Of a DNA stretch of 25,671 bases, positions 1-20,318 are shown in pieces; position 1 is the first letter of the stretch; each line of letters begins with the position of its first letter. The DNA is taken from positions 1-25,671 of the forward strand of contig CAZUFC010000112.1 in assembly GCA_964619725.1 (NCBI GenBank), read 5' to 3'. The translations under genes and the position numbers were made by a program. The notes under the pieces are model-generated. The model had not been told where the DNA came from, did no database searches, and worked only from the letters and a program-made list of their open reading frames with translations. This stretch comes from an uncultured bacterium. Its GTDB lineage: Bacteria > CSSED10-310 > CAZUFC01.

Positions 1-501
1 AGCTCATGTTTGAATTTCGATTAATCAACGCTCTTCTACCGGATATAGGGGGGGCAAAAACTTCACAATTATTATGCCGAGTTGAACTTCAAGAAAATCA
101 CACTTTTTCAATAGGTTGTGACATTCTTGTCAGGAGTTCAGAATTTATGAATTTTGTCTGAAATAAAATCGGAAAAGAACGTCAAAATACATTGGAGCAG
201 GTCATACTTAACACAGCGGTGACACGACGACACGAAAAAAAAAAATAAAGGGAATGAAATTTAACTACGAGAGGAGTTTTTGATATAAAGAAAAAAGAGG
301 GAAGAAATAAGTCTGATTTTCGATTTCAAGTAAATAAGGAAAGGGCTTAATATGAAAAGATATTTCGTAAGGAATGCAGAAAACTCGAATAGTGATAAAG
401 ATTCGATTCTGCTCACTTTGATTCCTGGAAAACAAGGGACATGTAGACAAGTCGGTAGAGGAGACAGCGTAACTTCCAGTCTGAATGGATTTAATCCAGA
501 A

Positions 502-2925
502 ATGGTTTTAATGCCGATAACGCGCTTTCTTCGTCTATTATTCTTTTTAGTTTTCGGATTCTCTTTATTCTTGATATTGAATGAAAAAGCAGCTCATAGT
601 GAAACTGCGATCCGGGACGAAGTGTACGTCGGACAGGGAAGTTATACGACCGAGTTGCCTTCAGGGTGTGAAATTCCCTCTGATTATGCAGGCGATCCGG
701 TGGGTCCATTAATTACAGAAAACATTACAGGTGCGGTTCCGACAAATGATTGGCATTCCTCTTTGGTTTGGGAATACTACCCCGGATACGCTCATTCTCT
801 GAATATGTATTCGCATCCTCTGGCGTTAAAAGCTTTTTCTTCTGGAGTTGGTCTGAGTTATCCCGCAGAACCGGCATTATTCATTCCACCTCCGCCTCCC
901 CACATCGGTGAATACCACTATTGTTACGACGAAGATTTAAGGCTCGGCGTAAGCGGATTGAATTCACCGGATACAAGACTTGATGATTATTCGGATTGGG
1001 TAATAACGGCGCAGTGGGATGACGGCACAAGAAGCCTGAAAGTTACCATGGGGCATGGAATCCCATTCGTTTATGCAGAAATATCGGGAGGCGATGCTCT
1101 GATCGCGTCGTCCTCTCCATTTGAAATTTGGCATAATGATGAAGGCACGATCGGCATGACAGTTAATGGACATCATTATGGGATATTTGCCCCTTATGGA
1201 TCAGTCTGGGCTGTATCGAATACTCTGCAATCTTCTTTGAACGATCAAGATTTCTTTTCAATTGCTATCCTGCCCGACGACGATTTGAACACTTTGCTTT
1301 ATTATCGGAAGAACGCCTACGCATTCATTCGCGAAACTGAAGTATCATGGACATATGATGAACAAAGCGCCGTTCTGACTACTTTTTTTAATATTTCAAC
1401 CGAACTTAAAGAAACAGGGCACGGAAACGTAAACCACGCTTTAATCGCACTCTATCCCCATCAATGGCTTCATTCGAACGAAATTTTGACGGACTATGAA
1501 TATGTATCGTCACGCGGGGTTATGAAGGTCTTCGAGGGTAATTCGTTCAGCACGAATTTGGTTTTCAACGGCATCTTACCGAACTTACCCGATATGGGAG
1601 GATATGATCCAGATATATTGTACGACTACGTTAACGAAGTTTATACCGCTTCAGGAAATTTGGATTTCCCGGATACCTATTGGGTCGGTAAGGCGATGAA
1701 TCGTCTCGCCATGTTGGTTCCGATCTCAGAACATGTCGATCACATTGCTGCAAGAGACTCCTTTTTGGATCAATTAAAGGTTAAATTGGAAGAGTGGTTT
1801 ACGGCAGGCGGGGACAGCGGTTTTTACTATGATGAAACCTGGGGCACCCTGATCGGTTGTCCGGCAAGCTTTAACTCAGGAAAAGAGCTTAATGATCATC
1901 ATTTTCACTACGGTTATTTCCTGCGTGCGGCGGCAACAATCGCCAGATATGATCCGGAGTGGGCCCAGCAGGAGAATTGGGGAGGTATGGTGAATCTGTT
2001 GATCAAGGATACGGCGAACTGGGAAAAAACTGATACTCAATTTCCATTCCTTCGTTATTTCGATCCCTATGCTGGACATAGTTGGGCTAACGGACCGGCA
2101 TGCTTTTCCGCCGGCAATAACCAGGAATCCTCCTCTGAAAGTCTTAATCACGCTGCTGCGATATTTTTATGGGGGGCTCTCACAGAAAATGTAACAGTGC
2201 GAGACTTGGGTATTTTTCTTTATGCCACTGAAGTCAGCGCAGTCGAACAATATTATTTCAACATTGATGGAAATGTTTTTCCGGAAAATTTTGATTTCAC
2301 GACTATCGGAATACTATGGGCCGATGGCGGTGCTTATGCCACATGGTGGACGAGTAATCCGGAAGAAATACACGGCATCAATTTTTTGCCTGTTACCGGA
2401 GGCTCCCTGTACCTCGGCAAAAATCCAGATTATATTCTAACGAATTATCAGGAAATGATCGATCATAACGGCGGTCCTGAAACAGAATGGGTGGACATTA
2501 TTTGGAGTTTTCTGGCGCTGAATGATGCCGGCGAAGCGTTGATTAAATTTGAAGAAAATTCTGATTATTTGCCTGAAACAGGAGAAAGCAAGGCCCATAC
2601 CTATCACTGGCTCAACAATTTGAATGATCTGGGTCGGCTAAAAACGGGCATCGCTTGCGATAGCCCCGCATATGCTGTTTACGAAAAAGAAGGAGAACTC
2701 GCTTATGCCGCTTTTAATCCAGGACCTGATGATCTAATAATTAACTTTTCGGACGGTGCACGTCTTTTTGTCCCTTCAAAAGAACTGGTCGTCGGCGACG
2801 GAACAGAGCCCATGCCTTCCCCCACTCCGACAATAACAATACCGGCGGACAATTCAATTTTTGCTGTTTCGATTATAATGACGTTATCGTTGATCCTGAA
2901 ATTCAGGAATGGAAAACAACGATGA
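502..2925 (+). CDS. Secreted GH81 endo-beta-1,3-glucanase with PT linker and C-terminal membrane anchor/sorting signal
   Basis: GH81 motifs PTNDWHSSL, ELNDHHFHYGYF, FDPYAGHSWANG, NQESSSE. ORF track starts at 352, but the signal peptide (RFLRLLFFLVFGFSLFLIL..AHS) follows ATG 502/511, so the start was moved. C-terminus PSPTPTITIPA + hydrophobic helix + KFRNGKQR. Confidence 0.93.
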   Translation: MVLMPITRFLRLLFFLVFGFSLFLILNEKAAHSETAIRDEVYVGQGSYTTELPSGCEIPSDYAGDPVGPLITENITGAVPTNDWHSSLVWEYYPGYAHSLNMYSHPLALKAFSSGVGLSYPAEPALFIPPPPPHIGEYHYCYDEDLRLGVSGLNSPDTRLDDYSDWVITAQWDDGTRSLKVTMGHGIPFVYAEISGGDALIASSSPFEIWHNDEGTIGMTVNGHHYGIFAPYGSVWAVSNTLQSSLNDQDFFSIAILPDDDLNTLLYYRKNAYAFIRETEVSWTYDEQSAVLTTFFNISTELKETGHGNVNHALIALYPHQWLHSNEILTDYEYVSSRGVMKVFEGNSFSTNLVFNGILPNLPDMGGYDPDILYDYVNEVYTASGNLDFPDTYWVGKAMNRLAMLVPISEHVDHIAARDSFLDQLKVKLEEWFTAGGDSGFYYDETWGTLIGCPASFNSGKELNDHHFHYGYFLRAAATIARYDPEWAQQENWGGMVNLLIKDTANWEKTDTQFPFLRYFDPYAGHSWANGPACFSAGNNQESSSESLNHAAAIFLWGALTENVTVRDLGIFLYATEVSAVEQYYFNIDGNVFPENFDFTTIGILWADGGAYATWWTSNPEEIHGINFLPVTGGSLYLGKNPDYILTNYQEMIDHNGGPETEWVDIIWSFLALNDAGEALIKFEENSDYLPETGESKAHTYHWLNNLNDLGRLKTGIACDSPAYAVYEKEGELAYAAFNPGPDDLIINFSDGARLFVPSKELVVGDGTEPMPSPTPTITIPADNSIFAVSIIMTLSLILKFRNGKQR

Positions 2926-3117: not shown

Positions 3118-6100
3118 ATGAAAAAATTTTTCGTATTGTCTTTTCTGACGATCTTCCTGAGTTCTTTAGGTTTCAATTATTCGGTTCACTCACGATCCAA
3201 CGATATTAACGAAAAGATAGTTTTTCAATCTAACCGCGCTGAAACAACGGATGGCGACTGTTTTCACGTCTATTCAGAAACAGGTTCCGAACCGAAATGC
3301 CATTTTGAAGTCAATTGCGATATAGGAGCTTATGGGGAATTGGAAGAAGGGGGTTTAGATGAAACTGACCTGGGATGCGTATGTGAAGGTAACTTGTGCA
3401 TGCAAGCGAAGATTAATTTGCATCAGGAAGAGCATGCCGGCTGGTTTGTTCGAGCCGGTACTCTTGAGAATCATCAAACCCGGGATATGTCTGGCTTTGA
3501 AAACGGTTGTTTGATCTTTTGCTTGAAAAGTCCCGTTGACCTGGGCGTAGGAATTCGATCTTCTGATATACCGGAAGGGGAAGAAGAATCCAAAATAAAA
3601 CTGTCCGAACTGGGGATATTGCCGGACGACAGATGTCGGGAAATAATCATTCCATTAGATGAATTCAAATCCCGGGATGATCGGTTGGATTTTTCGCAAA
3701 TCGAAGTACTGTTCAATATTTATTCTGATCAGACCACCGGAGGGACAGGAGGACAAAATGTCATTTTTTACGTTGATAGTATTCAATGGTGTAGAGAATG
3801 TCCCGTTCCAACCGAGTCTGAGCTGGATTTTGAGCTTAATTTAAATCCTAAGCTGTATTGGCGTGACGATCATTTCTCTCTCAATGTAATAATTCATAAT
3901 GCAGGACAGGATATTCAAGCCGATATGCACGCTGCGCTGATTTTACCATCCGGTGAAATTCTGTTTTTACCGGATTTTACTGAGATTCCGACTCCAATGA
4001 GAAGATTTTATTATGGGGGGCAAACTTACAAAGAGAATTTACTTAATTTTGAGTGGGACTCGGATATGATTTTAGAGGGATTACAATTTGCAGGAGGGTT
4101 AACGTTTTTAGGAACATACTCGGTAATTGACTTCGATTCGGCGGTTTGGAGCTGCGGAAAATGTGAAATACCTACGCCGACGCCGACTCCGACGCCGTCC
4201 TTCACGCCGAATTGTTACGGCGTTTATTCAGAAACGATAACAGGATGCATCCTGGATGACACCTGCATGATCGGCATCTATCCCACACCAGAACAAATCC
4301 AAAATAACGACGGTTACATTGAACTTGAAGAAGTTGACGATACTTACTGCGAACCGGATTACAGCATGAAAGCGACGATCAATGTTCCGATGCCGGACAG
4401 CTTTGCCGGCTGGTTCGTCAGGGCGGGGACATTTGAAGAGCCCGATACTATCGACATGAGCGATTATGCTGACGGCAGTCTTTGGCTATGCGCCAGGTCC
4501 TCCTTTGAATTAGGCATAGGCATAAGATCTGCCGATATTGCTGCGAGCGATGAGGAATCATGGGTATTGCTGTCTGATTATATTCCCCTTGACGATGAAT
4601 GGCATGAATTCTGTGTACCTATTCCAACCTTCACAAATCTGGAAGATGAACTTGATTTGAGTCAGATGGAAGTGCTGTTTAACGTGTTTTCGAATTCAGA
4701 TACAGGCGGAACGGAAGGAGAAGAAATTTTCTGGATCGATAACGTACGGTGGTGTATCGAACCATGCCCTTATACTCCCACTCCCACCCGCACTGAAACA
4801 AACACGGAGACTTATACTCCAACAATTACTACAACTCCGACACCAATGATTACCGCAACTTGTTACGGCGTTTATTCCGAAACGATATCAGGGTGCAATT
4901 TGGATTCCACCTGTGTGATCGGAATCTATCCTACACCGGAAGGTACACACAAAAATGACGGCTACATTGAGCTAGAAGAGGTTGACGATACTTACTGCGA
5001 ACCGGATTACAGCATGAAAGCGACGATCAATGTTCCGATGCCGGACAGCTTTGCCGGCTGGTTCGTCAGGGCGGGGACATTTGAAGAGCCCGATACTATC
5101 GACATGAGCGATTATGCTGACGGCAGTCTTTGGCTATGCGCCAGGTCCTCCTTTGAATTAGGCATAGGCATAAGATCTGCCGATATTGCTGCGAGCGATG
5201 AGGAATCATGGGTATTGCTGTCTGATTATATTCCCCTTGACGATGAATGGCATGAATTCTGTATTCCTGTTCCTACATTCACCGACTTGGAGAACGAACT
5301 TGACTTAAGCCTGATGGAAGTCTTGTTTAATGTGTTTTCTAATTATGATACGGGCGGAACTGAAAGTGAAGAAAATTTCTGGATCGACAATATTCGATGG
5401 TGCAGCAGTCCCTGCCCTACTGTAACGCCGACCCCTATTACAACGATTACGCCGTACCCCTCAATATCTCCTTTACCTTCTTCAACGCACACTCCCGTAT
5501 TACAAGAATGTTACGGCGTATATTCCGAATCCGTACCGGGATGCATTTTCGAGACAACCTGCGATATTGGTTGTTATCAGGGACCAGGAAGCAGCATAGA
5601 ACTTGAAGAAGTCGGAGGAGCGTATCCATACATGCAAGCTGCCATAAATGTGCCCATGCCGGACGGTTATGCCGGGTGGTTCGTCCGTTGCGGAACTTTC
5701 GAGGAACCTGATACGCTCGATATGAGCGCTTATGCAGATGGAAGCCTTCGATTTACAGCCAGGACTGATGTCGAATTAGGCATCGGTATCCGTTCAGCGA
5801 ACATAGAACCGGGGGACGAAGAATCCAAGACGCTTCTTTCTGATTACATGCTCATTGATGGGCAATGGCATAGCGTATGCGTCCCTATTCCTTTATTCAC
5901 GGAATTGGAAGAAGACATTGAACTGAATCAAATGGAAGCGCTTTTTAATGTTTTCTCCAACTATGATACCGGCGGTACAAGCCGTCCGGAAGTCTTCTAC
6001 ATTGACGAAGTTGAATGGCGTCAAATCCCTTGCGGCTTTGATTCAGTGTCCGACAGGTATTGCCCCCACAGAAATTCAAACTCCTTAATTTCTGAAAGAA

Positions 6101-6582
6101 TGGCGAATGCTCCTCAGGACGACTCGCCGCTGAACATGATTACTCGGAAAACGAATCAAAAGAGCGAAAAAATGCTGTCTCGCCTGGAACATTTCAATCA
6201 GGATCAATATTCAGAAAATTCAATGCAATCGGAATACGAATCTCCCATTACTTTAGAAATATGCCTCAACCAACATCTCTTCTGGGAAAATGAAGAATTC
6301 CTCTTTGAAATTATGGCGCATAATGCTAATGACGATTTGGAAGTTGATTTGTATCTCTGGATCGAGATCGGGGACATCCTGCTCTTTTGGCCTGAATGGA
6401 ATGAGGAAATTCATTGTGAAAACCGCTTTATTGAAGCTTGTGGAACGCTGTCAGAGGAAATAATAAGGATTGCCTGGCCCGGCGATGCAACGGGAAATTT
6501 GACTATCTGCGCTTGCATGTTCTATTCAGGAGCTTTTGAACAAGCGAGCAATGTCGCATGCGATACATTCCGATTTGAATGA
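3118..6582 (+). CDS. Secreted multidomain protein: four Cys-rich ~180-aa CBM-like beta-sandwich repeats, PT linkers, two ~110-aa CTD-like domains; no catalytic domain recognised
   Basis: RBS AAGGAG; signal peptide MKKFFVLSFLTIFLSSL. Repeats at ~3259-3804, 4213-4770, 4861-5418 and 5509-6033 share AGWFVRxGT, D-M-S, LGxGIRS, [IM]ExLFNx[YF]S and F[WY][IV]DxxxW. Pro/Thr linkers lie between them. CBM function is inferred from the fold-like pattern and gene context. Confidence 0.8.
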   Translation: MKKFFVLSFLTIFLSSLGFNYSVHSRSNDINEKIVFQSNRAETTDGDCFHVYSETGSEPKCHFEVNCDIGAYGELEEGGLDETDLGCVCEGNLCMQAKINLHQEEHAGWFVRAGTLENHQTRDMSGFENGCLIFCLKSPVDLGVGIRSSDIPEGEEESKIKLSELGILPDDRCREIIIPLDEFKSRDDRLDFSQIEVLFNIYSDQTTGGTGGQNVIFYVDSIQWCRECPVPTESELDFELNLNPKLYWRDDHFSLNVIIHNAGQDIQADMHAALILPSGEILFLPDFTEIPTPMRRFYYGGQTYKENLLNFEWDSDMILEGLQFAGGLTFLGTYSVIDFDSAVWSCGKCEIPTPTPTPTPSFTPNCYGVYSETITGCILDDTCMIGIYPTPEQIQNNDGYIELEEVDDTYCEPDYSMKATINVPMPDSFAGWFVRAGTFEEPDTIDMSDYADGSLWLCARSSFELGIGIRSADIAASDEESWVLLSDYIPLDDEWHEFCVPIPTFTNLEDELDLSQMEVLFNVFSNSDTGGTEGEEIFWIDNVRWCIEPCPYTPTPTRTETNTETYTPTITTTPTPMITATCYGVYSETISGCNLDSTCVIGIYPTPEGTHKNDGYIELEEVDDTYCEPDYSMKATINVPMPDSFAGWFVRAGTFEEPDTIDMSDYADGSLWLCARSSFELGIGIRSADIAASDEESWVLLSDYIPLDDEWHEFCIPVPTFTDLENELDLSLMEVLFNVFSNYDTGGTESEENFWIDNIRWCSSPCPTVTPTPITTITPYPSISPLPSSTHTPVLQECYGVYSESVPGCIFETTCDIGCYQGPGSSIELEEVGGAYPYMQAAINVPMPDGYAGWFVRCGTFEEPDTLDMSAYADGSLRFTARTDVELGIGIRSANIEPGDEESKTLLSDYMLIDGQWHSVCVPIPLFTELEEDIELNQMEALFNVFSNYDTGGTSRPEVFYIDEVEWRQIPCGFDSVSDRYCPHRNSNSLISERMANAPQDDSPLNMITRKTNQKSEKMLSRLEHFNQDQYSENSMQSEYESPITLEICLNQHLFWENEEFLFEIMAHNANDDLEVDLYLWIEIGDILLFWPEWNEEIHCENRFIEACGTLSEEIIRIAWPGDATGNLTICACMFYSGAFEQASNVACDTFRFE
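4333..4614 (+). repeat. 282-bp direct repeat, copy 1 (identical to 4981-5262)
   Basis: Base-by-base reading from gttgacgatacttactgc to gaattctgt found no mismatch with the copy 648 bp downstream. Confidence 0.92.
4981..5262 (+). repeat. 282-bp direct repeat, copy 2 (identical to 4333-4614)
   Basis: Same comparison; the flanks on both sides diverge at many synonymous and non-synonymous sites. Confidence 0.92.
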
Positions 6583-6663: not shown

Positions 6664-8526
6664 TCAGTTAGAATGATAACTGAATATCCAATCAGCAATA
6701 TTTCCGATCAAACGGTCGTTTTGGTCCAGAACAGCAGAATAAAAAAACAGATTATACAGTGATTCTTCAGTTTCGGGCCATTGGAATGGATTTATTATCT
6801 GCACTATTCCGTAACCGTTTTCGATGACTGCGATTTCTTCAAAATCAATAGCTGTTTCCCATCCGGGCCAGAAAAAGAATTCGCCGTAAACTTCCAAAAT
6901 CACGTATAAATAAACGTCGTTTAAACTTTCGCAACCATTGCAGAACAATGCGCTCAAATAACACTCGCTTCCCGGCGTAAAGGGACTCATCGGCATTTCT
7001 AATCCGGTAAGATAAATATCAGTTCCCGGTCTCATATTGCAATAAGCCTGTTCGACGGCGTAATATTGCAGTTTTTTATTACGATCTTTACTCATTATTC
7101 CCCATCCTTCTTCAGGAGCGCCGGGGTCCATTTTGTTCAACCAGGCGAAGGCGCATCCGCCTATAGTTAAACCTTTTGCCGCGCTGATGCCTTCCGTCCA
7201 CCGGATAGCGTAATCCTGAGCCCGTTCGCAATCGTCATATTGCGACCATTCAGTCGCCCACCATCCGTCGCAACCGTATTCAGTGAACAACAAAGGTCTG
7301 TCGTAATCCCATCCAGGATAATCGGCAATAACCTGTTCCGCTCCTTCATATGAATTGCAGCAATAAATATCCAGGGAAGGGGCATGTTGAATTATTGATT
7401 CGACCGGATTAAGTCCTGCAGCCGCATAACCTGCCGGATGGTTAGGATCAACCGCGTGTATGTTCATGCATTGCTCATTCAAAAATTCTGCGAAAGCGGT
7501 TTTATTTTCTTGAGTATCCGGTTGCAGGAATTCGAATACTTCGTTTCCTGCGATCCAACCCAATATGGCCGGATGATCCTTGTAACATTCGATGAAATTA
7601 GTCAAGGAGTATTCCACAGCCTGCCGGTATACTGAATCTGTATAATCCCTCGGAGGCGAATCCGGCCATTCGCTCCCCGTCAGAATCCAATACCCGGCCA
7701 GAACCTTTAATCCGGCTCCGTGCATTTCATCCAGCGCAGAAAAACTGATGTCGCCCTGTCCCCAGGTTCGAATAGTATTGCCGCATGCGTTTTTCACAAG
7801 TTGGAAGTCTCGCTCATAACAGCTTTCGTCTACTGAGTTATACCCGAATCCCCGGACAAACCATTCTTCATCATCAACAAGCAGTTGAAAATTCCGATTA
7901 GCGAGATTTCCCTGAATGGATACGGCAGATGGAATATCACCTGACCGGGGAAAAACCAACTTGATCTCATCAAAGTATATTTGAACTTCCCGGGATGCAT
8001 CAATCGTAAATCCGAATATGTTGTTGACTGAACTCAAATCATATTCCGATAACCCTTCTATAGTCATATCATGCCAGCTTTCATTAAGCGTAACGGTCCT
8101 GGAAACCTGATCGTCGAACATTACTATTTGGATATTTTCGTTCGCAGTGCCTCGAACAGAAAATTCGCATCGAACGCATCCGGAAAAATCAACCCCCGGA
8201 CCATCCCAATTTGATGCAGAATTCTGCATCCATATACCGTCCCAGTCGTTTTCACCAGTTATAACAACCTTTACGCAATAAACTCCTCCTCTTGGATTCT
8301 CAACACAATCAAAATTGATCGTTTTACCGCCCCCTGCCGACGGCGATCCCATAAAACCGCTCCACGGAAAAGCATGAATATCGTCGTATAAAAAAAGTCT
8401 CTTGTAGACCACAGATGTATTACAGGCTCGGTATCCCGGTTCGTTTTTTTCATTTGAAGCTTTCAAAAAACTGCCGCAAACCATAAAAAAAAGACACGAT
8501 GTAAATATCATCATTTTTGCTCTCAT
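6664..8526 (-). CDS. Secreted clan GH-A TIM-barrel glycoside hydrolase (GH2-like; GH157/GH158 beta-1,3-glucanase-like) with N-terminal CBM-like and C-terminal CTD-like domains
   Basis: NTIRTWG, YKDHPAILGWIAGNEV (acid/base NE), DPNHP, RPLLFTEYG (nucleophile E). Start moved to ATG 8526 (AAGGAG RBS, signal peptide MRAKMMIFTSCLFF..LKA). Exact GH family uncertain. Confidence 0.82.
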   Translation of the reverse strand: MRAKMMIFTSCLFFMVCGSFLKASNEKNEPGYRACNTSVVYKRLFLYDDIHAFPWSGFMGSPSAGGGKTINFDCVENPRGGVYCVKVVITGENDWDGIWMQNSASNWDGPGVDFSGCVRCEFSVRGTANENIQIVMFDDQVSRTVTLNESWHDMTIEGLSEYDLSSVNNIFGFTIDASREVQIYFDEIKLVFPRSGDIPSAVSIQGNLANRNFQLLVDDEEWFVRGFGYNSVDESCYERDFQLVKNACGNTIRTWGQGDISFSALDEMHGAGLKVLAGYWILTGSEWPDSPPRDYTDSVYRQAVEYSLTNFIECYKDHPAILGWIAGNEVFEFLQPDTQENKTAFAEFLNEQCMNIHAVDPNHPAGYAAAGLNPVESIIQHAPSLDIYCCNSYEGAEQVIADYPGWDYDRPLLFTEYGCDGWWATEWSQYDDCERAQDYAIRWTEGISAAKGLTIGGCAFAWLNKMDPGAPEEGWGIMSKDRNKKLQYYAVEQAYCNMRPGTDIYLTGLEMPMSPFTPGSECYLSALFCNGCESLNDVYLYVILEVYGEFFFWPGWETAIDFEEIAVIENGYGIVQIINPFQWPETEESLYNLFFYSAVLDQNDRLIGNIADWIFSYHSN

Positions 8527-8691
8527 TCTGACATTCTCCTTTCTTCTTTTTTCTAAAATGAAGATTAAAAAACAATCGGCAATTGTTAACACTCAAACGA
8601 CGCTGAAGTTTTTTCGATGCTTAGAAGTAGAATTTTTTCTTTTCAGAATTGGCGACACCCCTCTGACCGATAAGATGTTCCATCACTGAGA

Positions 8692-9234
8692 TTATGGAAC
8701 ATATACAATTCTCTGTAAATAGACGGTTCGAGCCTCTTGCTCCGTGAAAACCACCTCGGCGACTACATATAAATTTTCAAGATCAGCTGTGAAAAAATCA
8801 CTTAAAGGAAAAACGTAACTCGTCCAGGCATCAGTCAGAGTGATAGGTATTTTTGTTTCTTCACCATTGTCAGGATCGGCGACATCTTTAATGCCGATCT
8901 CGACGCACTCGCCTCCCGATTCTCCCCGCAACTCAACAGCTAATTTTTTGAAATCAGAAAAATCCTCCGAAGGTCGAGGCGGATCACTAACCGTACCGGT
9001 TACGAAAAATACAGAGCCCCACTCGCCGGAAGGATATGACATTTTCAGAAAACCTTCTTTTTCCTCAAGCCAGTTTGTATTGCCGGAAGAATGAGCTACG
9101 CCTATATCAAATCCCGGATATAGCATTCCTGAATAAATCCTGAATTCATCCTCTTCATCCGGTCCGACAGTTTGATTCAATGTGCAGCCCAGGCAGACCT
9201 GTAAAGTAAACAAAATTAAAAAAAACTTTTTCAT
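8692..9234 (-). CDS. Lipoprotein with a single CBM-like (galactose-binding-like/CBM11-like) domain
   Basis: Lipobox CLGC (Cys17); DFSDFKKLAVELRGESGGECVEIGIKD...LTDAWTSYVFPLSDF pattern; start shares base 9234 with the upstream stop (TAATG coupling). Confidence 0.75.
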   Translation of the reverse strand: MKKFFLILFTLQVCLGCTLNQTVGPDEEDEFRIYSGMLYPGFDIGVAHSSGNTNWLEEKEGFLKMSYPSGEWGSVFFVTGTVSDPPRPSEDFSDFKKLAVELRGESGGECVEIGIKDVADPDNGEETKIPITLTDAWTSYVFPLSDFFTADLENLYVVAEVVFTEQEARTVYLQRIVYVP

Positions 9235-10046
9235 TATTTACCTTCCTTCGTTATTACACGGGATGGAACACTTTTATTTCCTTTGAACAGACGATCATCC
9301 GAGTCCAATTTTTTGATTTTTCTTTGTTGCAAAATAGGCCGAGACGGCATGTCTGTAAAAGCAGGCAGCTCTTTACACCACCTTACATAATCTATCCAGA
9401 ATTCCGTCTCGCCGACCGTTCCTCCCGTTTCACTGTTGGAAAAAACGTTAAACAAAACTTTCATCTCAGATAATCTAAGTTCATCATCTTTTTCCAGGAA
9501 ATCGATTATCGGAATGCACAGTTCCTGCCATTCATCCTTAGGCTCCAGATAGTCCGAAATCAAAATCCAGGATTTTTCATTTCCCTCGTAAATATTATGG
9601 GAGCGTATTCCGATCCCAAATTCAATCGTTGATCGGAAGCAAAAACATAGATATCCGTTCCTGTATTCGTTCATGTCTATAGTGTCCGGCGTATCGAATA
9701 AACCACATTGAATAAACCAACCCGCCCATCCGTTGGGAAAGGGAACATTTAAGACAGTTTTCATGCTGTGATTCGGCTCGCAATATGTCCCGGAAGTTTC
9801 TTCTATTTCTATAGCGGCTTCTCCTCCACGGTATACTCCAATTTTACAATCCTCATTCAGATGACAACACGGTTCGTTCTGACTGTCTGAATAGAGTCCG
9901 AAACAATGTTCCTCGGTCTGTGTTTGAGTGGGAGCCGGATCAGGTTCTGTCGCGCATTCGTCGTCACATCCTATCAACGAACAGAAAAAAATCGCGGGAA
10001 TCATTAAGAAAAATTTAGGTTTTTTCATCGCTTTTTTGTATTTCAT
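9234..10046 (-). CDS. Lipoprotein with one copy of the Cys-rich ~180-aa repeat domain of the 3118-6582 protein
   Basis: Lipobox LIGC (Cys27); domain ~9375-9906 (YCEPNHSMK..AGWFIQCG..FGIGIRS..KVLFNVFSNSETGGT..FWIDYVRWC) aligns with the four repeats; GGAGG RBS and ATGA overlap with the upstream gene. Confidence 0.85.
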   Translation of the reverse strand: MKYKKAMKKPKFFLMIPAIFFCSLIGCDDECATEPDPAPTQTQTEEHCFGLYSDSQNEPCCHLNEDCKIGVYRGGEAAIEIEETSGTYCEPNHSMKTVLNVPFPNGWAGWFIQCGLFDTPDTIDMNEYRNGYLCFCFRSTIEFGIGIRSHNIYEGNEKSWILISDYLEPKDEWQELCIPIIDFLEKDDELRLSEMKVLFNVFSNSETGGTVGETEFWIDYVRWCKELPAFTDMPSRPILQQRKIKKLDSDDRLFKGNKSVPSRVITKEGK

Positions 10047-11310: not shown

Positions 11311-11480
11311 CAATTTGAATTTTTGTCTTAGCGCTTCATTCATGGTGGTGATTTTCAATTCATCCAGCTTCTTCAGGCATATGATCGGAAATTCATTCAA
11401 TCAACAAAGCGAACCTGACTCGCGCAAAATATGAGATGCCGTAAGCGAAATTAATTTCACCCGAATAGGGAAAATATCAT

Positions 11481-11508
11481 TTGACAAAAGTCCCATTGCA
11501 TGAATAAT
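11481..11508 (+). promoter_or_regulatory. Candidate sigma70 promoter for the SBP-CHAT operon
   Basis: TTGACA (11481-11486) - 16 bp - AATAAT (11503-11508); GGAGGAG RBS before ATG 11654. Confidence 0.4.
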
Positions 11509-11653
11509 CGTATATTGAGAATAATAGTACCCGTTAATCTGTGAAAAGCAAGGGCTATGAAGAAGAAAATTTTTCGTTAAAGTAATTTGCAAAAGAGGGA
11601 TTTGCGTTGATTCATTATAATTTTCACAGAGAATAATTGGAGGAGAAAAATAA

Positions 11654-14428
11654 ATGAGCGGTGTCAGAACCTTTCAAAAGTTATCGGCCATAACGCTATT
11701 GATTTTAAGTTGCCTAAATGTCGCAAATGCGGGTGAAGATAACGGGCTGATTATCTGGATACCGCCTAATGAGATAGAGTATTTCAAAGGCGCGGCGGGA
11801 CGAGATGAAATTTTTCCTGAACCCGGAGAAATAGAATCATTTTTCAGAGATGTCCATAAATTTTTCAAAGAAAAGCATGATATAGATTTGTCTATTCAGA
11901 TAAGATTGAGTGATGTCTGTAAAAAAGCATTGCAAGATGAGCATTTTGCCCGTCAGGTTTTAGGGCAGAAAATGATTTTTCAAGAAATTAACAAATTCAT
12001 TCAGGATTACGATTACAAAAGGATTATTGAGATCAGATTCTTCGATTGGGAAGAACTGCTTGAAATTCTGGAAAACATGGCTTTGGGCGAAGATAATGAA
12101 CTGCCTCACCTTATTGCCGCTCCATCCACCTGGATAGCTCATCTGGCTTCAAAAGGAGTTCTCATACCCATCGAAGCCGACAGAGAAAATTATGTCGAAC
12201 AATCATTGGAAACATGCATGGTCAAACGTTTTTTTTTGAAATGCAATGATTGCAATTACTTTGCGAAAAGAATCTTCAGAATATTCGGAGCGGATTACGG
12301 CAAGAGTACGGTATACGCCCTTCCATTCTACGTCGACGTGCGCTTTTTCTACTATTGGAAATCTCTTTTTCCCGACAGAAAGTTTGATAACAGAGGAATA
12401 TTTGAAGAAATATTGAATAGCGTCGTGAAAAAACAGCGTAATGAAGAAAAAGTTATTCCGCCGCTATGCATTTCTACGGAAATGGACTGGGATTTGTTGC
12501 ACTTCTTCAGTCTCGTGCTCTGGGGGGCAGGCGGAGATTGGAACGAATTCCCGGCTTTTTTACAAGAGGAACCATCCGATGATGCAGTTGATTCTTTAAA
12601 CAGGCTTCATGGGAATAATGACCTTCAAAAAGCCTGTTATTTACGTGAAAAACGATCCACTATTGAAAATCGTTTCCTCAAAAAGGAATTCGGCAGTATG
12701 ATAACCGGTCTGTGGATGCTGGCCAAATTGAAACATCAGCTTGGAGAAAATTGGAACGAACAGGTCGGAATCGAATTGCCCCCTTTTAATGTCAATGGTC
12801 CTAAGAAAACGTTTATAGGCGGTTTGCATCTCGCTCTTTCGCCGCGTGCAGAAAATAACGAATATGCTGTAGAGTTCATAAAGTTTCTCACGACGGAATC
12901 TGTTCAACGTCATTCTCAAGACATATTCATTATTCCGGGCGATAAAAAAGCATTCGATGACATTCCCGACACGCCTGTAAACCGAATATTGAAGCAGGGA
13001 GTTAAAAACTCAAAATATTATCCGCGTTTCGAAGAGTGGGCATCAATTGAATCGGAATTAACCCGTAATCAACTATTTTGTCTTTTTAAACACATTTCTG
13101 AAGGACAGAAAGAACTCAGCAAACAGGATATCGAAGCGGTGCAAGGATATTTCGGATACCTTGGTCGAAAAATATATTTTACGCCTCTTATTCCCTTTTT
13201 GGCGATTTTGATTTTTGTCATTCTGGCAATCACGGTGAGGTGGTGGTATTACGGATCTAAACGACGGCTGAAAAAAATAATATCAAAGATCAACCCCAAG
13301 TATAAAAATTTTACGGTTACAATCGATTGTCCCTTCGAAAAAGAGAAAAAAATCTATAAGACGGCTTTTATCAAACGATCTAGGGGATGGGCGAATAATA
13401 CCGTAAAAGAAACAGTGAATTTGAATTCACAGACATTCACACTTCTTCGGCAATATGCTGCTGATAGGGCAAATTTAAGTAACATCCAGACAAGCGAACT
13501 GAAAAAATTCGGTAACCTTCTTGCCGAGATCGCTTTGCCGGGTAAAATATTCTACGAATTTAACGAAAAAATAAGACAAATTCAGAAAAAGCGCAAAAAA
13601 TTGCGCCTGCGTCTCAATATTGAGTGCGACGAACTGCGTGAGCTTCCCTGGGAATATTTATATTTCAATCCGGATGAATTGAAACCAGGAAAATTGCGCA
13701 AGTCGGAATGGATGCGGAAAGTGTTCCTGGGCCTGAATCCCGATGTTTCCATAGTGAGATTCCCCGAGTTTGGTACAAAAAAAGTTAAAGGGTTTACCAG
13801 AAAATTAAAAATACTGATCGTAATTTCCAATCCTGCTGCAGGAAGATGGGTCGATCTCGCTAACGCTGAAAAAGAAGAGGATATTATTAGAACAGCTTTC
13901 AGTAAAAAAAGGAAGGTGTCCATAGAGACCCTTAAAAAATGTGGGAATCAGCTCGTAACTGCACAAAATCTCCTCCAAACAATACAATCATATAAACCAG
14001 ATATCATTCACTTGATCATGCACGGATGCCCCAGGAATGACCCTGATGTTCAAGAAGATTCTTTGGTGATGGAAAGTCAAACTGCTCTTCAGTATGAGTA
14101 TTTTTCTTTGGAGACGTTTCTGAATAGAGTCAGAGAAGCTCATGTAAAGATGCTTGTCTTTTCTGCATGTTATATAGGAGGTTCTGAACTCCTTTCCACG
14201 GATACTAATGAAATACCGTTAATCATCGGCAGCCGGTTCGAGTTGCCGGAAAACTGCGGGCTCATCTTCACCAAAGCGTTTTACGAAGCGTTTTCAGATC
14301 ATCTTTACCTGGATGAATGCATATCTTCAGGAAGGCAATACCTGTATGCAGACCAGATTGATGAATTGCCCGTATGGGGACATATCAACTTTTACTGCAA
14401 CAGCAATAAAAATTTTCTTTGGATATGA
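11654..14428 (+). CDS. Extracytoplasmic sugar solute-binding domain - TM helix - cytoplasmic CHAT (caspase-like) protease fusion
   Basis: Signal peptide ..NVANA|GED. Sugar-SBP motifs IEIRFFDWEEL, LPHLIAAPSTWIAHLASKGVLIPI, VYALPFYVDVRFFYYWKSLF, TFIGGLHLAL, AVEFIKFLT. TM helix at ~13172-13251. CHAT motifs LRLRLNI..ELPWEYL, LKILIVISNP, PDIIHLIMHG (His790), MLVFSAC (Cys839), FTKAFYEA. Confidence 0.88.
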   Translation: MSGVRTFQKLSAITLLILSCLNVANAGEDNGLIIWIPPNEIEYFKGAAGRDEIFPEPGEIESFFRDVHKFFKEKHDIDLSIQIRLSDVCKKALQDEHFARQVLGQKMIFQEINKFIQDYDYKRIIEIRFFDWEELLEILENMALGEDNELPHLIAAPSTWIAHLASKGVLIPIEADRENYVEQSLETCMVKRFFLKCNDCNYFAKRIFRIFGADYGKSTVYALPFYVDVRFFYYWKSLFPDRKFDNRGIFEEILNSVVKKQRNEEKVIPPLCISTEMDWDLLHFFSLVLWGAGGDWNEFPAFLQEEPSDDAVDSLNRLHGNNDLQKACYLREKRSTIENRFLKKEFGSMITGLWMLAKLKHQLGENWNEQVGIELPPFNVNGPKKTFIGGLHLALSPRAENNEYAVEFIKFLTTESVQRHSQDIFIIPGDKKAFDDIPDTPVNRILKQGVKNSKYYPRFEEWASIESELTRNQLFCLFKHISEGQKELSKQDIEAVQGYFGYLGRKIYFTPLIPFLAILIFVILAITVRWWYYGSKRRLKKIISKINPKYKNFTVTIDCPFEKEKKIYKTAFIKRSRGWANNTVKETVNLNSQTFTLLRQYAADRANLSNIQTSELKKFGNLLAEIALPGKIFYEFNEKIRQIQKKRKKLRLRLNIECDELRELPWEYLYFNPDELKPGKLRKSEWMRKVFLGLNPDVSIVRFPEFGTKKVKGFTRKLKILIVISNPAAGRWVDLANAEKEEDIIRTAFSKKRKVSIETLKKCGNQLVTAQNLLQTIQSYKPDIIHLIMHGCPRNDPDVQEDSLVMESQTALQYEYFSLETFLNRVREAHVKMLVFSACYIGGSELLSTDTNEIPLIIGSRFELPENCGLIFTKAFYEAFSDHLYLDECISSGRQYLYADQIDELPVWGHINFYCNSNKNFLWI

Positions 14429-14509
14429 CGAATTTGTTTAAGGCAAATAAATAGACATATGACTCACGACGAGTCCCAACAATTTTTAAGCGAATAGAGA
14501 GGTGCAGAA

Positions 14510-16456
14510 ATGTTCAATTCTATAAGAGTTAAAAAAATGTGTTTTGTCCCGCTCCTGTTGACCGCCTTTTTGGGTTGTGCGGCAAAAACCGAGCCAGCAA
14601 TTAAAAAAACAAATGGAAGAAACTCCGACGCAGAAAATTCAAAAGCTGTAATGGAGAAATCCCCGGAAGAAAAAGGATATGCCCATCTAAACGAGGTCAT
14701 GGATAAGCATCAGGAAAAGTTCTACGTATACCTGGACGGATACGAGGCCGGAAACCGGTTCATCCCTTCGGGTTGGATGGGCGACTACGGAGATATTATT
14801 TTCGATGAAGCCTGGACCAAAAATCCTCATTCCGGAAGCTCCTGCACGATGATCACCTACCTGGCGGAGGGTTATCAGAAAGAGTATTGGGCCGGCATAT
14901 ACTGGCAATCGCAAAATGATAACTGGGGCGAACAGCCGGGATATCCCCTGCAAGATGCAGATAAAGTGATATTCTGGGCCAGAGGCGCTCACGGAGGCGA
15001 GCGAATAGAGTTTAAAGCCGGAGGCATCAACCGACCTCCATATAATAATGACGAGAAACCATACAGTGATTCCTTCGGACCGGTCAGCACAGGCATAACA
15101 ACGTTAAGAAAAAAATGGACTCGATACGAAATAGACCTTTCTAAAGAAAACCTTAATTCAGTCATAGGAGGGTTCTGCTGGGTTACGAACAAAAGAGAAA
15201 ATCCGAAGGGCTGCACGTTTTATCTTGATGACGTTTACTACAATAAGTCGAACCTGGATGAATTAAGGTTTCTGGTCAGTTATGAACTGCCGTCGATACC
15301 CGAATACAAAGCCCTCAAAAACGTGGCGTTTGTATACGATAATGCACTGGTCATTCTGGCGTTCTTAGCGCGTGGAACGAAAGAAGATATTCGCAGGGCC
15401 GCCTTATTGGCCGATGCAGCCGTGTACGCTCAAAGAAACGACCGTTTTTTCTGCGAAGAAAAATACGACGGAAGATTGAGGAATGCCTACAGGGCGGGTC
15501 CGCTAGTCGATCCCTTCAGTAAAGAAGCTCTGCTGCCGGGTTGGATGGATAGGGCGGATGAGAAATGGTACGAGGATAAATTTAACGTTTCTACGCATAC
15601 GGGAAACGTCGCCTGGATGATGATCGCATTGCTGGATTATTATGATGCGAGCAGAAATGAAAAATACCTTGCGGCTGCAGAACAAATGGGAAAGTGGATT
15701 CATCAGAATTGTTTCGATGATTACGGATTCGCCGGATATACGGGCGGTTATGAAGGTTGGGAACCGGACGAAAATAATCCGGAAGGCCAGGAAAAATTGC
15801 TGTGGAAATCTACAGAACACAACATTGACGTCTATGTCGCTTTTATGCGTTTGTTTCAACAGACCGGCGATTCCAAATGGAAAGAATGGGCCCTGCATGC
15901 AAAAAAATTCGTGGAGTCGATGTGGAACCATGAAGACGGCCATTTTTGGACGGGGACTCAGAAAAAATGCGCTGAAACAACCGAATACGTTAATAAGGGG
16001 CCTATTCCGTTAGACGTTAATACCTGGGCTGTTATGGCGCTTGGAAACGTCAGTAAATACGGCAGGGGAATTGAATTTATCGAAAAAAAATGCAAGGTGA
16101 CCGATTCTTCTGAAGAATCCTGTCAGGGTTACAAGGGATTCGATTTCAACGACGATAAAGACGGAATCTGGTTTGAAGGTACAGCCCAGGCATGCATAGC
16201 CTACCAGATAATGAATGACGATCAAATCGCGGATAATTACCTCGACCAACTGAGAAAAGTCCAGAAAGAGGCAAAATACGGCAATGGGAAAGGAATTATT
16301 GCCGCCTGCAAGGAAGACCTTACCACTGGTTTCGATTGGATATATTTCGACCGGCTGCATATAGGCGCCACAGCATGGTTTCTCCTGGCCGAACAAGAGT
16401 ATAATCCTTACTGGGGTATAAAAACTGATTCGCCCATCCCCTTTGAAGATTTGTAA
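14510..16456 (+). CDS. Lipoprotein: CBM-like N-terminal domain + (alpha/alpha)6 six-hairpin glycosidase-like domain
   Basis: Lipobox FLGC (Cys23). N-domain FIPSGWMGD..WAGIYWQ..NWG..FWARGAHGGERIEFKAGG..FYLDDVYY resembles the N-domain of the GH-A protein. Helical barrel motifs YDNALVILAFL, TGNVAWMMIALL, KSTEHNID, PLDVNTWA, DGIWFEGTAQ. Confidence 0.78.
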   Translation: MFNSIRVKKMCFVPLLLTAFLGCAAKTEPAIKKTNGRNSDAENSKAVMEKSPEEKGYAHLNEVMDKHQEKFYVYLDGYEAGNRFIPSGWMGDYGDIIFDEAWTKNPHSGSSCTMITYLAEGYQKEYWAGIYWQSQNDNWGEQPGYPLQDADKVIFWARGAHGGERIEFKAGGINRPPYNNDEKPYSDSFGPVSTGITTLRKKWTRYEIDLSKENLNSVIGGFCWVTNKRENPKGCTFYLDDVYYNKSNLDELRFLVSYELPSIPEYKALKNVAFVYDNALVILAFLARGTKEDIRRAALLADAAVYAQRNDRFFCEEKYDGRLRNAYRAGPLVDPFSKEALLPGWMDRADEKWYEDKFNVSTHTGNVAWMMIALLDYYDASRNEKYLAAAEQMGKWIHQNCFDDYGFAGYTGGYEGWEPDENNPEGQEKLLWKSTEHNIDVYVAFMRLFQQTGDSKWKEWALHAKKFVESMWNHEDGHFWTGTQKKCAETTEYVNKGPIPLDVNTWAVMALGNVSKYGRGIEFIEKKCKVTDSSEESCQGYKGFDFNDDKDGIWFEGTAQACIAYQIMNDDQIADNYLDQLRKVQKEAKYGNGKGIIAACKEDLTTGFDWIYFDRLHIGATAWFLLAEQEYNPYWGIKTDSPIPFEDL

Positions 16457-18092: not shown

Positions 18093-20318
18093 TTATACGG
18101 GTATTTCAGACGCCAGGGCTTTCTGCGCGGCCGTTTTCATGTCGCCTGCTCCGGCCAGGGTGACTTCAGAAGGCAATCTCAAAAGTATGGTTGGCGCAAC
18201 CACAACAGAAAAATCTCTAACTTTCTCAGTTCGCCAGTAACCCTTTTCACGGATCGATTTCTCGATGGCTTTTCTCAATTCATGACGTATATTTTTTTCC
18301 TCTTCCATAGTCGAGACAGTCCTTAATTTCATCTCAGAAACTTTAAGTTTCGCATATTCCTTGGCGAAAAGGAGCAGCTGGTACATAGATTGCTTTGACA
18401 ATACAAGAGACCAGTCGCTTGTTCGATTAGCCCTCCTGTATAGGGCTTCAGGTACCGCTGAACTTGATAGAAGCATGGCTTGACGGTGGCGCTGAAGCTT
18501 TATTTCTTCCTTATCCGTTTCTTTTTCGCCAGGTTTGTCTGTTCTGTTTTTTGTAATCAGAATATCTAAACCCGGATCATGAACAAATACAGATGGAACA
18601 TCCAGCTTCTTGGCCAGGTGTTTTGCTCTCAGATAAACACCTATATTGCGTTCTCCCGGTTTAGGCGATATCCAAATGCTATAGGGTGATCCGTATTCGC
18701 TTGTTATCTGGTAAAGGTCCTGTCTGTTGATGCCGATTCCCTTAAGTTTTCCTTTCTGAAAAATGGGTTGTAAATTATCCAGCGTTTTTCCGTCCAGGAA
18801 CTTTGAAATCTCAAAACGCGTGTTGGCGCCCGCATCAGCCAACGCTTTTAGTTGATTAGTCAACGCCTCCCGCAACAATGACGTCAGCTTTTCGTTGAAT
18901 ACAATTTTTCCCATTTGATCTATTCCTCCCAACATGGCCGATCTCATCTGCTCCGCAAACGGTTTCAGTTCATCGTAATTCACCAATTCGATCGATATGA
19001 TTTCTTCCGCTGCATCGTATTCGTATTCATGCTGAAAAAGGTAAAATATCGGCCAGAATTCGCTGTTCGACCATAAAGGATCGGATATACTGCTTTTATC
19101 CGTTTCAACATACCAGCATGATGCATCATTATCCCAATCAGGCGAATTCTGCTTATCGGACCATCTGTAGTTTTTATCCGCCTTCCAACAGACTCTGATC
19201 TTTTTCCAGGGCTTCGCAGGATCGACAAAAGGCTCCGGCTTTACAAAAATAACCCGGTCCGCAGAAAGACGGTCCTGCTCGATTACTTTATGCAAATTCA
19301 AACGAGGCCATAACCCGTTTTCAGACATCAAATTCATCACAAAACTCGCTCTTCGAGGATCGCCGCTTTTGCCGGATGCCTTTGCAGACTCTATGTGACC
19401 TCCTTCCTGGTTGAATATGAGTCTTTCGGCGCAATCAGGGAATATTGCAGCCTGTTTACTGCTGTGATAGGGAATGTGCACCAGCGTTTTAAATCCCATT
19501 TGCCTGTAAAGGTATGCCTGATTTCCCGCAGCGCCTCCCAATGTCTTGAATACCTTTATAAATTCACCGACATATCTTTTCAAGACGGTTTCCATTTGCT
19601 CACTTTTATTTCCGAATTTATCTTCTGAAAAAGAAGTTTCGGAAATTTGATTCTCAAATATGATGTGAAGCAAATCCTGCAGTTTCTTATCACCTATATG
19701 CGGGTTTAATCCTTCACGCCTCATCAAGCAGATTATACAGGCAAGCAGGTCTATTCCATCAAGAACGCTTTTGTCCAGAGGCTCCTCGTCACTGTTCAAA
19801 GATGCTGCCGCCCTTTTTTCAGCTTCCCGGTAAACATCCTCCGGCTTTAGTCCTTCCCACGCTGGAATAATCTCAACTAAAAAATTCATCACATCTTGAG
19901 TCAATCTTATGCTCAAATCTTCAACCGCTGAAAATCCGCAAAATCGGTACTTATCGTCGAGTTTGTAATTTATCGCTGCATACAGGTATCTGTGCCAATC
20001 TATTAGTTTTTTGGCGTCCTCCAGTTTTTCGGGAATTACTTGCTTCAGTTCCTCTATCCACCAGAATGACGATCTCAAAAGAGTTTCTAAATAATCAATA
20101 AATAAATCAGGAAGATCGTCAGGATTCAGCGCGCGCTTCAGGCATTCGTGAATTTCTTCGTTTATATTCGATTGGTCGATTTCGTGGAATAAAAGGAAAT
20201 TCTTAACCAACTCGTAACGCTTATTCAGCAATCCGCGCTCATTAACTTTCTTCTTAAATTTCTCATTCATATGCTCATTCGCTTCACATCCCTTTTCTTC
20301 TCTATATTTATTGACCAT
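18093..20318 (-). CDS. ADP-dependent glucokinase/phosphofructokinase-like protein (ribokinase superfamily), enlarged and divergent
   Basis: LGGAAGNQA (GG motif), GIGINRQDL (NxxE position), VVAPT..TLAGAGD (anion hole/catalytic Asp) near the C-terminus. Start moved to ATG 20318, which has a GGAGG RBS. Confidence 0.72.
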   Translation of the reverse strand: MVNKYREEKGCEANEHMNEKFKKKVNERGLLNKRYELVKNFLLFHEIDQSNINEEIHECLKRALNPDDLPDLFIDYLETLLRSSFWWIEELKQVIPEKLEDAKKLIDWHRYLYAAINYKLDDKYRFCGFSAVEDLSIRLTQDVMNFLVEIIPAWEGLKPEDVYREAEKRAAASLNSDEEPLDKSVLDGIDLLACIICLMRREGLNPHIGDKKLQDLLHIIFENQISETSFSEDKFGNKSEQMETVLKRYVGEFIKVFKTLGGAAGNQAYLYRQMGFKTLVHIPYHSSKQAAIFPDCAERLIFNQEGGHIESAKASGKSGDPRRASFVMNLMSENGLWPRLNLHKVIEQDRLSADRVIFVKPEPFVDPAKPWKKIRVCWKADKNYRWSDKQNSPDWDNDASCWYVETDKSSISDPLWSNSEFWPIFYLFQHEYEYDAAEEIISIELVNYDELKPFAEQMRSAMLGGIDQMGKIVFNEKLTSLLREALTNQLKALADAGANTRFEISKFLDGKTLDNLQPIFQKGKLKGIGINRQDLYQITSEYGSPYSIWISPKPGERNIGVYLRAKHLAKKLDVPSVFVHDPGLDILITKNRTDKPGEKETDKEEIKLQRHRQAMLLSSSAVPEALYRRANRTSDWSLVLSKQSMYQLLLFAKEYAKLKVSEMKLRTVSTMEEEKNIRHELRKAIEKSIREKGYWRTEKVRDFSVVVAPTILLRLPSEVTLAGAGDMKTAAQKALASEIPV

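Follow-up and report, generated by a model that had tools for sequence, protein, structure and literature searches.

Whether a bacterium might pass the presence of an extracellular sugar directly to a protease in its cytoplasm is the question raised by a gene on a 25,671-nucleotide (nt) stretch of DNA from an uncultured bacterium (contig CAZUFC010000112.1 of assembly GCA_964619725.1; in the following, the window), which represents a complete contig of a 9.17-Mb assembly (G000) with 91% completeness and 6.5% contamination. The gene encodes P0001, a protein of 924 amino acids (aa) for which a signal peptide, an extracytoplasmic solute-binding protein (SBP) domain, a single transmembrane (TM) helix and a caspase-like CHAT domain are predicted in this order (Table 1). 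A first-pass annotation of the window had proposed a one-component receptor in which binding of an oligosaccharide activates cytoplasmic proteolysis. The anatomy of the protein, its locus, the modular outputs of related SBP-TM proteins, the recurrence of the architecture and the precedent of SAVED-CHAT were found to speak for this idea, while the identity of the ligand, ligand-dependent activation, proteolytic activity, substrate and physiological output are what we infer. In our estimate the probability that P0001 is a one-component receptor for beta-glucan oligosaccharides with a protease output is roughly 0.5, and the case is presented as a lead from sequence inference on three singleton metagenomic proteins, not as an established mechanism.

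The open reading frame (ORF) starts with ATG and runs over 924 codons with no internal stop. At the N-terminus a basic n-region (R5, K9) is followed by a hydrophobic core from about residue 10 and by A-N-A before G at positions 24-27, and an N-terminal hydrophobic segment was present in all 11 members of the SBP-TM family examined. The sole internal stretch with a 19-residue Kyte-Doolittle mean above 1.6 lies at residues 505-534 (peak 2.67 at 510-528), and the 20 residues after the helix hold seven K/R and no D/E, as against three K/R and two D/E before it. Because of the signal peptide and this positive-inside bias, P0001 is predicted to be a single-pass type I protein with the SBP outside and the CHAT domain in the cytoplasm, so that the predicted topology comprises an extracytoplasmic sensor, a membrane span and a C-terminal cytoplasmic CHAT domain.

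The CHAT part was recognized by Pfam (PF12770) over residues 658-908 with 32.6 bits (cut-off 24; profile positions 32-281 of 289). For a closer view, residues 536-924 were aligned with 31 CHAT relatives from an exhaustive search (alignment A2). Since a leave-one-out profile of these 31 relatives, built free of the query, gave P0001 207.9 bits over residues 547-923, the module appears to be complete, with its N-terminal beta and helical sub-domains, and to begin about 17 residues after the membrane. His790-Gly791 and Ser837-Ala838-Cys839 are present, H790 falling into an invariant His column and C839 into a Cys column of at least 90% conservation, and all seven invariant columns of A2 are retained (P-W-E, R702, P727, H790, R894). 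The closest solved CHAT protein is SAVED-CHAT of Haliangium ochraceum (8tl0; A2 profile, E 2.2e-26), whose GHG and NAC correspond in the profile alignment to H375 and C422, the published dyad (bioRxiv 10.1101/2023.06.23.546230), the chain numbering being offset by 20 according to our own count. Neither a SAVED nor a TPR domain was found in P0001 by Pfam scan, and no helix-turn-helix family matched at E up to 1 (Pfam, NCBIfam), the cytoplasmic part being CHAT from residue 547.

The outer part of P0001 is an SBP by two Pfam families, SBP_bac_8 over residues 149-435 (E 1.4e-12, 48.5 bits, cut-off 27) and SBP_bac_1 in the N-terminal half (31.1 bits, cut-off 26). Thus the parts that the first-pass annotation had read from the letters, namely a Sec signal, an ABC-type sugar SBP domain, one TM helix with basic residues behind it and the C-terminus inside, and a complete CHAT domain with His790-Gly and Ser-Ala-Cys839, were all recovered, with the qualification that the CHAT domain is divergent. 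Among solved structures, residues 27-505 are closest to CbpB (7x0i, identified by its PDB molecule name, and five more entries; E 7.9e-16) and next to a Thermus ‘sugar ABC transporter periplasmic sugar-binding protein’, taken to be the beta-glucoside binder betaGlyBP (E 8.7e-12 for 7c63 and others), followed by trehalose/maltose- and acarbose/maltose-binding proteins. For CbpB of C. thermocellum, cellodextrins G2-G5 and laminaribiose are given as ligands, and 39% identity to the Thermus beta-glucoside binder betaGlyBP is stated (PMC9601137). Under a presumed numbering offset, W354 of P0001 is the probable match to the stacking Trp of CbpB. CbpB and betaGlyBP differ from P0001 in being soluble or lipid-anchored transport SBPs of about 410-420 aa next to ABC permeases, whereas the ectodomain of P0001 spans about 480 aa and contains insertions, at the N-terminus and internally, that are specific to its family. 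In an ESM Atlas model of the homologue P0003 (36% identical to P0001, and not P0001 itself) 382-397 residues could be aligned to SBP clusters, with TM-scores by target of 0.76-0.84 in six of the seven rows shown.

The locus itself is, by its predicted gene content, a beta-glucan-degrading gene cluster. The setting among beta-glucanases noted in the first reading was confirmed by a glycoside hydrolase family 81 (GH81) enzyme and a GH158-like enzyme on the contig; the second of the two structures matched by the latter, 6PAL, is BuGH158, and GH158 is a family of endo-beta-1,3-glucanases (PMC7157763). The gene of P0001 is divergent from an operon of GH and carbohydrate-binding module (CBM) genes. 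Because the family of the ectodomain, the solved structures nearest to it and the locus suggest the same answer, beta-linked gluco-oligosaccharides (laminari- or cello-) are most likely the ligand of the ectodomain and hence the signal.

How far this layout is shared by other proteins was examined in an exhaustive search of 1.84 billion representatives, which returned 1518 matches at E up to 1e-3; the best 150 of these were examined and, together with matches of word-based searches and cluster members, form a set of 155 proteins. Among the best 150, no end-to-end match to P0001 occurred besides the query. Both SBP and CHAT profiles matched three of the 155 proteins: P0001, P0007 (808 aa; signal peptide, SBP, TM, coiled coil and a short CHAT with G-H-G and N-A-C) and P0113 (974 aa; SBP-TM-CHAT with N-A-C). 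Judged by these domain assignments, the SBP-TM-CHAT design is rare, yet it recurs. When the CHAT part of P0001 was used for word-based searches, 28 matches were obtained, none of them with an SBP except the query, and with the cytoplasmic part of P0113 such searches recovered P0113 only. Searches for related loci with A3 (genome and metagenome contigs), P0009 (metagenome contigs) and P0004 (genome contigs) found none.

The nine closest SBP relatives within the best 150 matches are 31-38% identical to P0001 and have in common the signal peptide, an ectodomain of about 480 residues and a single TM helix. Behind this helix they carry a sigma54-type AAA+ output (P0002, P0006, P0008), a Clp-like AAA+ output (P0004), short or coiled-coil tails (P0003, P0005, P0009, P0010) or CHAT (P0007). 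As the cytoplasmic outputs are interchangeable, the SBP-TM unit is best understood, at the level of its predicted domains, as a rare portable sensor cassette and not as a transport component. In the SBP tree P0001 belongs to a 10-member SBP-TM clade with support of 100/99, in which CHAT is the output of two members, and P0113 falls into another SBP clade; given the starred branches of this tree, the CHAT label must have changed at least twice. In the CHAT tree P0007 groups with P0092 and P0133 (SH-aLRT 100), apart from P0001, and a single CHAT clade of P0001 and P0007 was not rejected by the approximately unbiased test (p = 0.267). Concerning the origin of the fusions, P0113 is set apart by the SBP tree, and the CHAT side is compatible with either a common origin or separate origins of P0001 and P0007. 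In an alignment of 49 further long SBP matches (A4), 45 matched SBP_bac_8, and the outputs recognized were HATPase_c (3), HisKA (2), SpoIIE (1), Sigma54_activat (1) and CHAT (1).

Some observations on these relatives are recorded in their own right. Most of the SBP-TM proteins of 870-1050 aa in A4 (for example P0014, P0016, P0019, P0025-P0027) possess cytoplasmic regions of 400-500 residues without a Pfam match. A conserved C-terminal block of about 90 residues, to which no function was assigned, is common to P0002, P0004, P0006 and P0008 regardless of the type of ATPase, and there appears to be no description so far of a membrane-anchored sigma54-type activator with an SBP fused to it.

The receptor reading gains support because the same SBP-TM module carries signaling outputs elsewhere (sigma54-AAA+, Clp-like AAA+), because SBP-TM-CHAT recurs in two further proteins, and because SAVED-CHAT, the nearest solved CHAT protein, is switched on by ligand-induced oligomerization (bioRxiv 10.1101/2023.06.23.546230). 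In such a receptor the GH81 and GH158-like endo-beta-1,3-glucanases would release beta-gluco-oligosaccharides, which would be bound by the ectodomain of P0001 outside the cytoplasmic membrane. Binding would change the oligomeric state or packing of P0001 by clustering or repacking, and the CHAT domains would be switched on by induced proximity, as in SAVED-CHAT. The activated CHAT might then cut a cytoplasmic regulator or a second protease, and this cleavage would couple the availability of glucan to the expression of utilization genes. By analogy, a soluble CHAT protein and an extended extracytoplasmic function (ECF) sigma factor encoded nearby are candidate targets. A more far-reaching proposal, put forward tentatively, would make P0001 the first of a class of transmembrane glycan receptors with caspase-like output, in which a laminari-oligosaccharide clusters the receptor, CHAT cuts a regulator and utilization of beta-1,3-glucan is turned on, the cassette having been plugged at least twice into CHAT and also into sigma54- and Clp-type ATPases. 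There, a zymogen form of the soluble CHAT protein or the ECF sigma factor with its 300-residue extension would be the candidates for cleavage.

Several points weigh against the receptor reading. The similarity to CbpB is limited to the C-terminal two thirds of the SBP of P0001, and identity is low. The analysis identified neither a substrate nor a DNA-binding domain nor a partner of anti-sigma type, the neighboring CHAT protein and the ECF sigma factor being candidates only. P0001, P0007 and P0113 are each singleton clusters, no match to P0001 was found in any of 40 other genomes searched (13 of the same phylum), and the association of SBP-TM-CHAT with glucanases comes from a single locus, that of P0001. 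The closest CHAT relatives include proteins with effector-associated N-termini, which are typical of conflict systems and not of nutrient regulators. Furthermore, 15 of the 45 A2 columns with at least 80% conservation are changed in P0001 (30 kept), and the losses cluster right after Cys839, where AVIAMQ is replaced by LIIGSR and two conserved columns are deleted. The terminal branch of P0001 in the CHAT tree reaches 3.17 substitutions per site, the median being 0.69, and its Pfam CHAT score lies just 8.6 bits above the cut-off. Because its core is so divergent, the CHAT domain of P0001 could be a pseudo-protease or have an unusual specificity.

One alternative is that P0001 is an effector of conflict or programmed cell death, whose SBP senses a danger cue outside the cell, for instance a glycan that stems from a competitor, from a phage or from envelope damage, and whose CHAT domain starts destructive proteolysis or a protease cascade, as in systems linked to CRISPR or CBASS. 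It would fit with the nearest solved CHAT protein being part of a defense system, with several close CHAT relatives having N-terminal adaptor-like domains, with the 18 CHAT matches in the genome, and with the second caspase-like CHAT gene 2 kb away, which echoes the cascade from SAVED-CHAT to PCaspase. However, PADLOC detected no defense model for P0001 or for four of the five window neighbors scanned, the fifth giving a generic HEAT-repeat match, and the neighbors are glucanases and CBM proteins. Moreover, sister sensors have outputs of the sigma54-activator type, and the second CHAT protein resembles P0001 at family level only and belongs to a different transcription unit, so that this alternative is regarded as unlikely. 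Nine other CHAT loci of the genome, available as fragments, contained no TM-anchored or SBP-linked form, and neither a second member of the SBP-TM family nor a CHASE2 domain was found in the genome, which has about 35 sigma54-AAA+ matches. As a side observation, this genome is rich in signaling genes, and its phylum contributes just 13 of the 40 other genomes searched.

The long branch and the lost positions, mainly behind the catalytic Cys, would also suit a CHAT domain that is a dead scaffold or serves for dimerization, any signaling then proceeding by binding and not by cleavage. DdvA of Myxococcus xanthus (8rot/8rw5) is an example of a TM-linked CHAT with an incomplete active site (PMC11506125). 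We consider this improbable for P0001, in which His790, Gly791, Ala838, Cys839, the P-W-E-Y motif, R702, P727 and R894 are all kept, and P0007 retains G-H-G and N-A-C and P0113 retains N-A-C.

SBPs anchored by a TM helix exist, and the domain of P0001 belongs to SBP families of ABC importers of the CUT1 type. Hence P0001 might be a membrane-anchored SBP that feeds an ABC importer encoded elsewhere, with CHAT as an accessory, for instance in transporter turnover, and 28 permease matches (BPD_transp_1) in the 9.17-Mb assembly could provide such an importer. None of these 28 lies on the contig of P0001 and no permease domain was found in ORFs of at least 150 aa in the window, in agreement with the first reading, which had seen no permease nearby; in contrast, an ordinary SBP on another contig of the same genome (C2) adjoins two permeases. 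In addition, the relatives of the SBP-TM module carry signaling or ATPase outputs and not permeases, and a conserved protease module of 377 residues is unlikely as a mere anchor, which leaves the importer a poor prospect.

Continuity of the ORF in reads had been named as a check in the first-pass annotation and was seen in Logan contigs. The P0001-containing stretch is present in four sequencing runs, all from one microbial-mat study. In run X1, possibly the source sample, a Logan contig spans positions 11400-14700 with 0 differences. In the second sample (X2) a single contig of 1005 nt is identical over 12425-13429 and thus leads from the C-terminal half of the SBP through the TM helix into the cytoplasmic part, as far as about residue 592, and run X3 contributed pieces over 13152-13339 and 13497-13653. 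P0001 is a real gene and not an assembly chimera because the contig of an independent sample bridges SBP, TM helix and juxtamembrane part, the GC content is even over the SBP/CHAT junction, and the architecture recurs in P0007 and P0113. The converse, a chimera or fused gene call, could invoke the singleton status of P0001, its origin from a metagenome-assembled genome with 6.5% contamination and the coverage of 13654-13883 by X1, the possible source run, only, but it is hardly credible given that no joints were reported in the Logan contigs of X1-X3, that composition is uniform and that the CHAT profile match starts 17 residues past the TM helix in the same frame.

To what extent this architecture is new has to be judged against several known systems. 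HetF is the founder of the CHAT family. In Anabaena PCC 7120 it is a CHAT protein anchored in the membrane by one TM region, which separates the catalytic domain in the cytoplasm from an extracytoplasmic domain, and its CHAT degrades the cytoplasmic regulator PatU3 (PMC9457339). However, the order is reversed in HetF (CHAT-TM-periplasmic TPR), the outer domain is TPR and not SBP, the setting is cell differentiation and not a glycan locus, and no ligand is known. CHASE2-TM-CHAT proteins, an uncharacterized database architecture, also combine an extracytoplasmic sensor at the N-terminus with TM segments and a CHAT domain at the C-terminus; six of these, of about 775 aa (P0044, P0074, P0083, P0103, P0108, P0116), are the best matches of the CHAT part of P0001 among the 150 examined (E 1e-18 to 1e-11, about 26-32% identity). 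They differ in having a CHASE2 sensor with three to four TM segments, whereas the sensor of P0001 has one TM helix and is an SBP and not CHASE2 according to Pfam.

Craspase, like SAVED-CHAT, is a ligand-activated CHAT protease. SAVED-CHAT shares the dyad columns with P0001, but is soluble, senses cyclic triadenylate (cA3) by its SAVED domain and belongs to a CRISPR/CBASS defense system. It cleaves a second caspase-like protease (PCaspase), which in turn cuts a sigma factor among other targets (bioRxiv 10.1101/2023.06.23.546230). DdvA, to which the A2 profile gave a weak match (8.8e-4), is likewise a single-pass membrane signaling protein with CHAT; here, however, TPR and CHAT are periplasmic with an incomplete active site, and the cytoplasmic part is an anti-sigma domain (PMC11506125).

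With regard to the glycan side, the BguR/SusR type of Bacteroidota shows the same general layout as P0001: a signal peptide, a glycan sensor in the periplasm, a single TM helix, an output directly in the cytoplasm and, as neighbors, glycan genes. BguR is a one-component regulator beside genes for beta-glucan (laminarin) utilization, with a sensor of tandem beta-propellers and Y_Y_Y and a GerE helix-turn-helix output (bioRxiv 10.64898/2026.01.10.698779), whereas P0001 has an SBP sensor, a predicted protease output and no DNA-binding domain. It is established that SBPs feed signals into chemoreceptors, kinases, GGDEF/EAL proteins and Ser/Thr kinases, and the word ‘protease’ is absent from the main text of the review that covers them (PMC8050422). 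A catalogue from 2010 includes fusions of cyanobacterial metacaspases with the sensor domains CHASE2 or ANF_receptor (PMC2853523); these are Peptidase_C14 and not CHAT proteins, and were listed only, not studied. Text searches of the literature found nothing that joins a CHAT domain with a solute-binding protein or with CHASE2, and articles holding both CHAT domain and substrate-binding contained, by their titles, no such fusion. The statement of the first-pass annotation that no description of this architecture was known therefore holds for SBP plus CHAT in these text searches, but not for the broader concept, which HetF, the CHASE2-TM-CHAT proteins and the metacaspase fusions precede. P0001 is thus, as far as its predicted domains tell, a new combination of SBP input, protease output and glycan locus, the component ideas of which were already known. 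The comparison with signaling from Dectin-1 to MALT1 drawn in the first reading is an analogy only.

Bacterial glycan sensing is known to rely on hybrid two-component phosphorelays, pairs of anti-sigma and ECF sigma factors, and membrane-bound DNA-binding regulators such as SusR and BguR. If the receptor reading is true, direct sugar binding that leads to cytoplasmic proteolysis would be a new output logic for one-component signaling, and the signals that switch CHAT/caspase proteases would then range from nucleotides inside the cell (SAVED-CHAT, craspase) to nutrients outside it. For engineering, such a receptor would be a small building block that converts an outside ligand into cleavage within the cell. 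The SBP-TM cassette, whose outputs can be exchanged between sigma54-AAA+, Clp-AAA+ and CHAT, makes up a sensor family that has not been described and is worth cataloguing.

Table 1: Features of P0001 and of its neighborhood in the window, with the evidence for each assignment.
Feature	Position	Strand	Basis
Whole ORF, P0001, 924 aa: signal peptide - SBP - TM - CHAT	11654..14428	+	ATG start, Pfam
Shine-Dalgarno-like GGAGGAG, 8 nt 5' of ATG	11640..11646	+	read directly in sequence
Predicted Sec signal peptide, residues 1-26, A-N-A before G	11654..11731	+	inspection and hydropathy
Extracytoplasmic CUT1-type solute-binding domain, residues 27-505	11732..13168	+	Pfam SBP_bac_8/SBP_bac_1, PDB relatives
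Single TM helix, residues 510-530, then basic stretch RWWYYGSKRRLKK	13181..13243	+	hydropathy, charge count
Cytoplasmic full-length CHAT (caspase-like, clan CD) module, residues 547-923	13292..14422	+	Pfam, leave-one-out profile, alignment A2
Codon of predicted catalytic His790 (M-H-G)	14021..14023	+	A2 column; aligns with H375 of SAVED-CHAT
Codon of predicted catalytic Cys839 (S-A-C)	14168..14170	+	A2 column; aligns with C422 of SAVED-CHAT
GH81 endo-beta-1,3-glucanase	352..2925	+	Pfam Glyco_hydro81C 2.6e-60; PDB 6fop E 4.7e-185
Secreted protein, 1154 aa, four CBM-like modules	3118-6582	+	weak CBM30 match
GH158-like protein (endo-beta-1,3-glucanase family), N-terminal CBM-like module	6664..8592	-	PDB 9oro 8.6e-18, 6pal 1.3e-13
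Lipoprotein-like protein, 648 aa, weak (alpha/alpha)6-type matches	14510..16456	+	81 nt downstream of P0001
Second, soluble CHAT protein, 430 aa	16480..17772	-	Pfam CHAT 2.6e-8; hhalign vs A2 95%
ECF-type sigma factor, N-terminal extension of about 300 residues	23844-25355	+	TIGR02937 2.5e-14, residues 299-468

As to the expression of P0001, scans for promoters and terminators in its region were no better than in shuffled sequence, the 531-nt region upstream contains short AT-rich repeats only, no Rfam family was detected in the window, and no RNA runs turned up in the sequencing-run search for the P0001 stretch. The lipoprotein-like gene downstream is possibly co-transcribed with P0001, and the terminator scan showed no terminator-like site on the plus strand between the two.

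The soluble CHAT protein is, by analogy, a candidate partner or substrate of P0001, to which it shows no significant pairwise similarity beyond family level. Its His stands in an A-H-N context and its Cys one position off the Cys column of the profile, and these two CHAT proteins, about 2 kb apart, have the weakest Pfam CHAT scores of the 18 matches in the genome. The N-terminal extension of the ECF sigma factor has no family match and gives the protein an unusual architecture; the factor could be proteolytically regulated.

Several weak CBM11/CBM30-like proteins are encoded in the window, and upstream of P0001 there are also two small CBM-like proteins and a 359-aa protein without matches. 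In the secreted 1154-aa protein a module of about 200 residues that contains Cys occurs four times, joined by Pro/Thr linkers, and the same module makes up a 270-aa protein (9234-10046, minus strand); possibly it represents a family of beta-glucan-binding modules not yet described. Between the soluble CHAT gene and the sigma factor gene, at 18093-23249, the gene for a protein of the Pup-ligase family (551 aa, 9e-86) is divergent from those for a HEAT-repeat protein and for a protein of 751 aa, the latter with a weakly ADP-PFK/GK-like C-terminal region.

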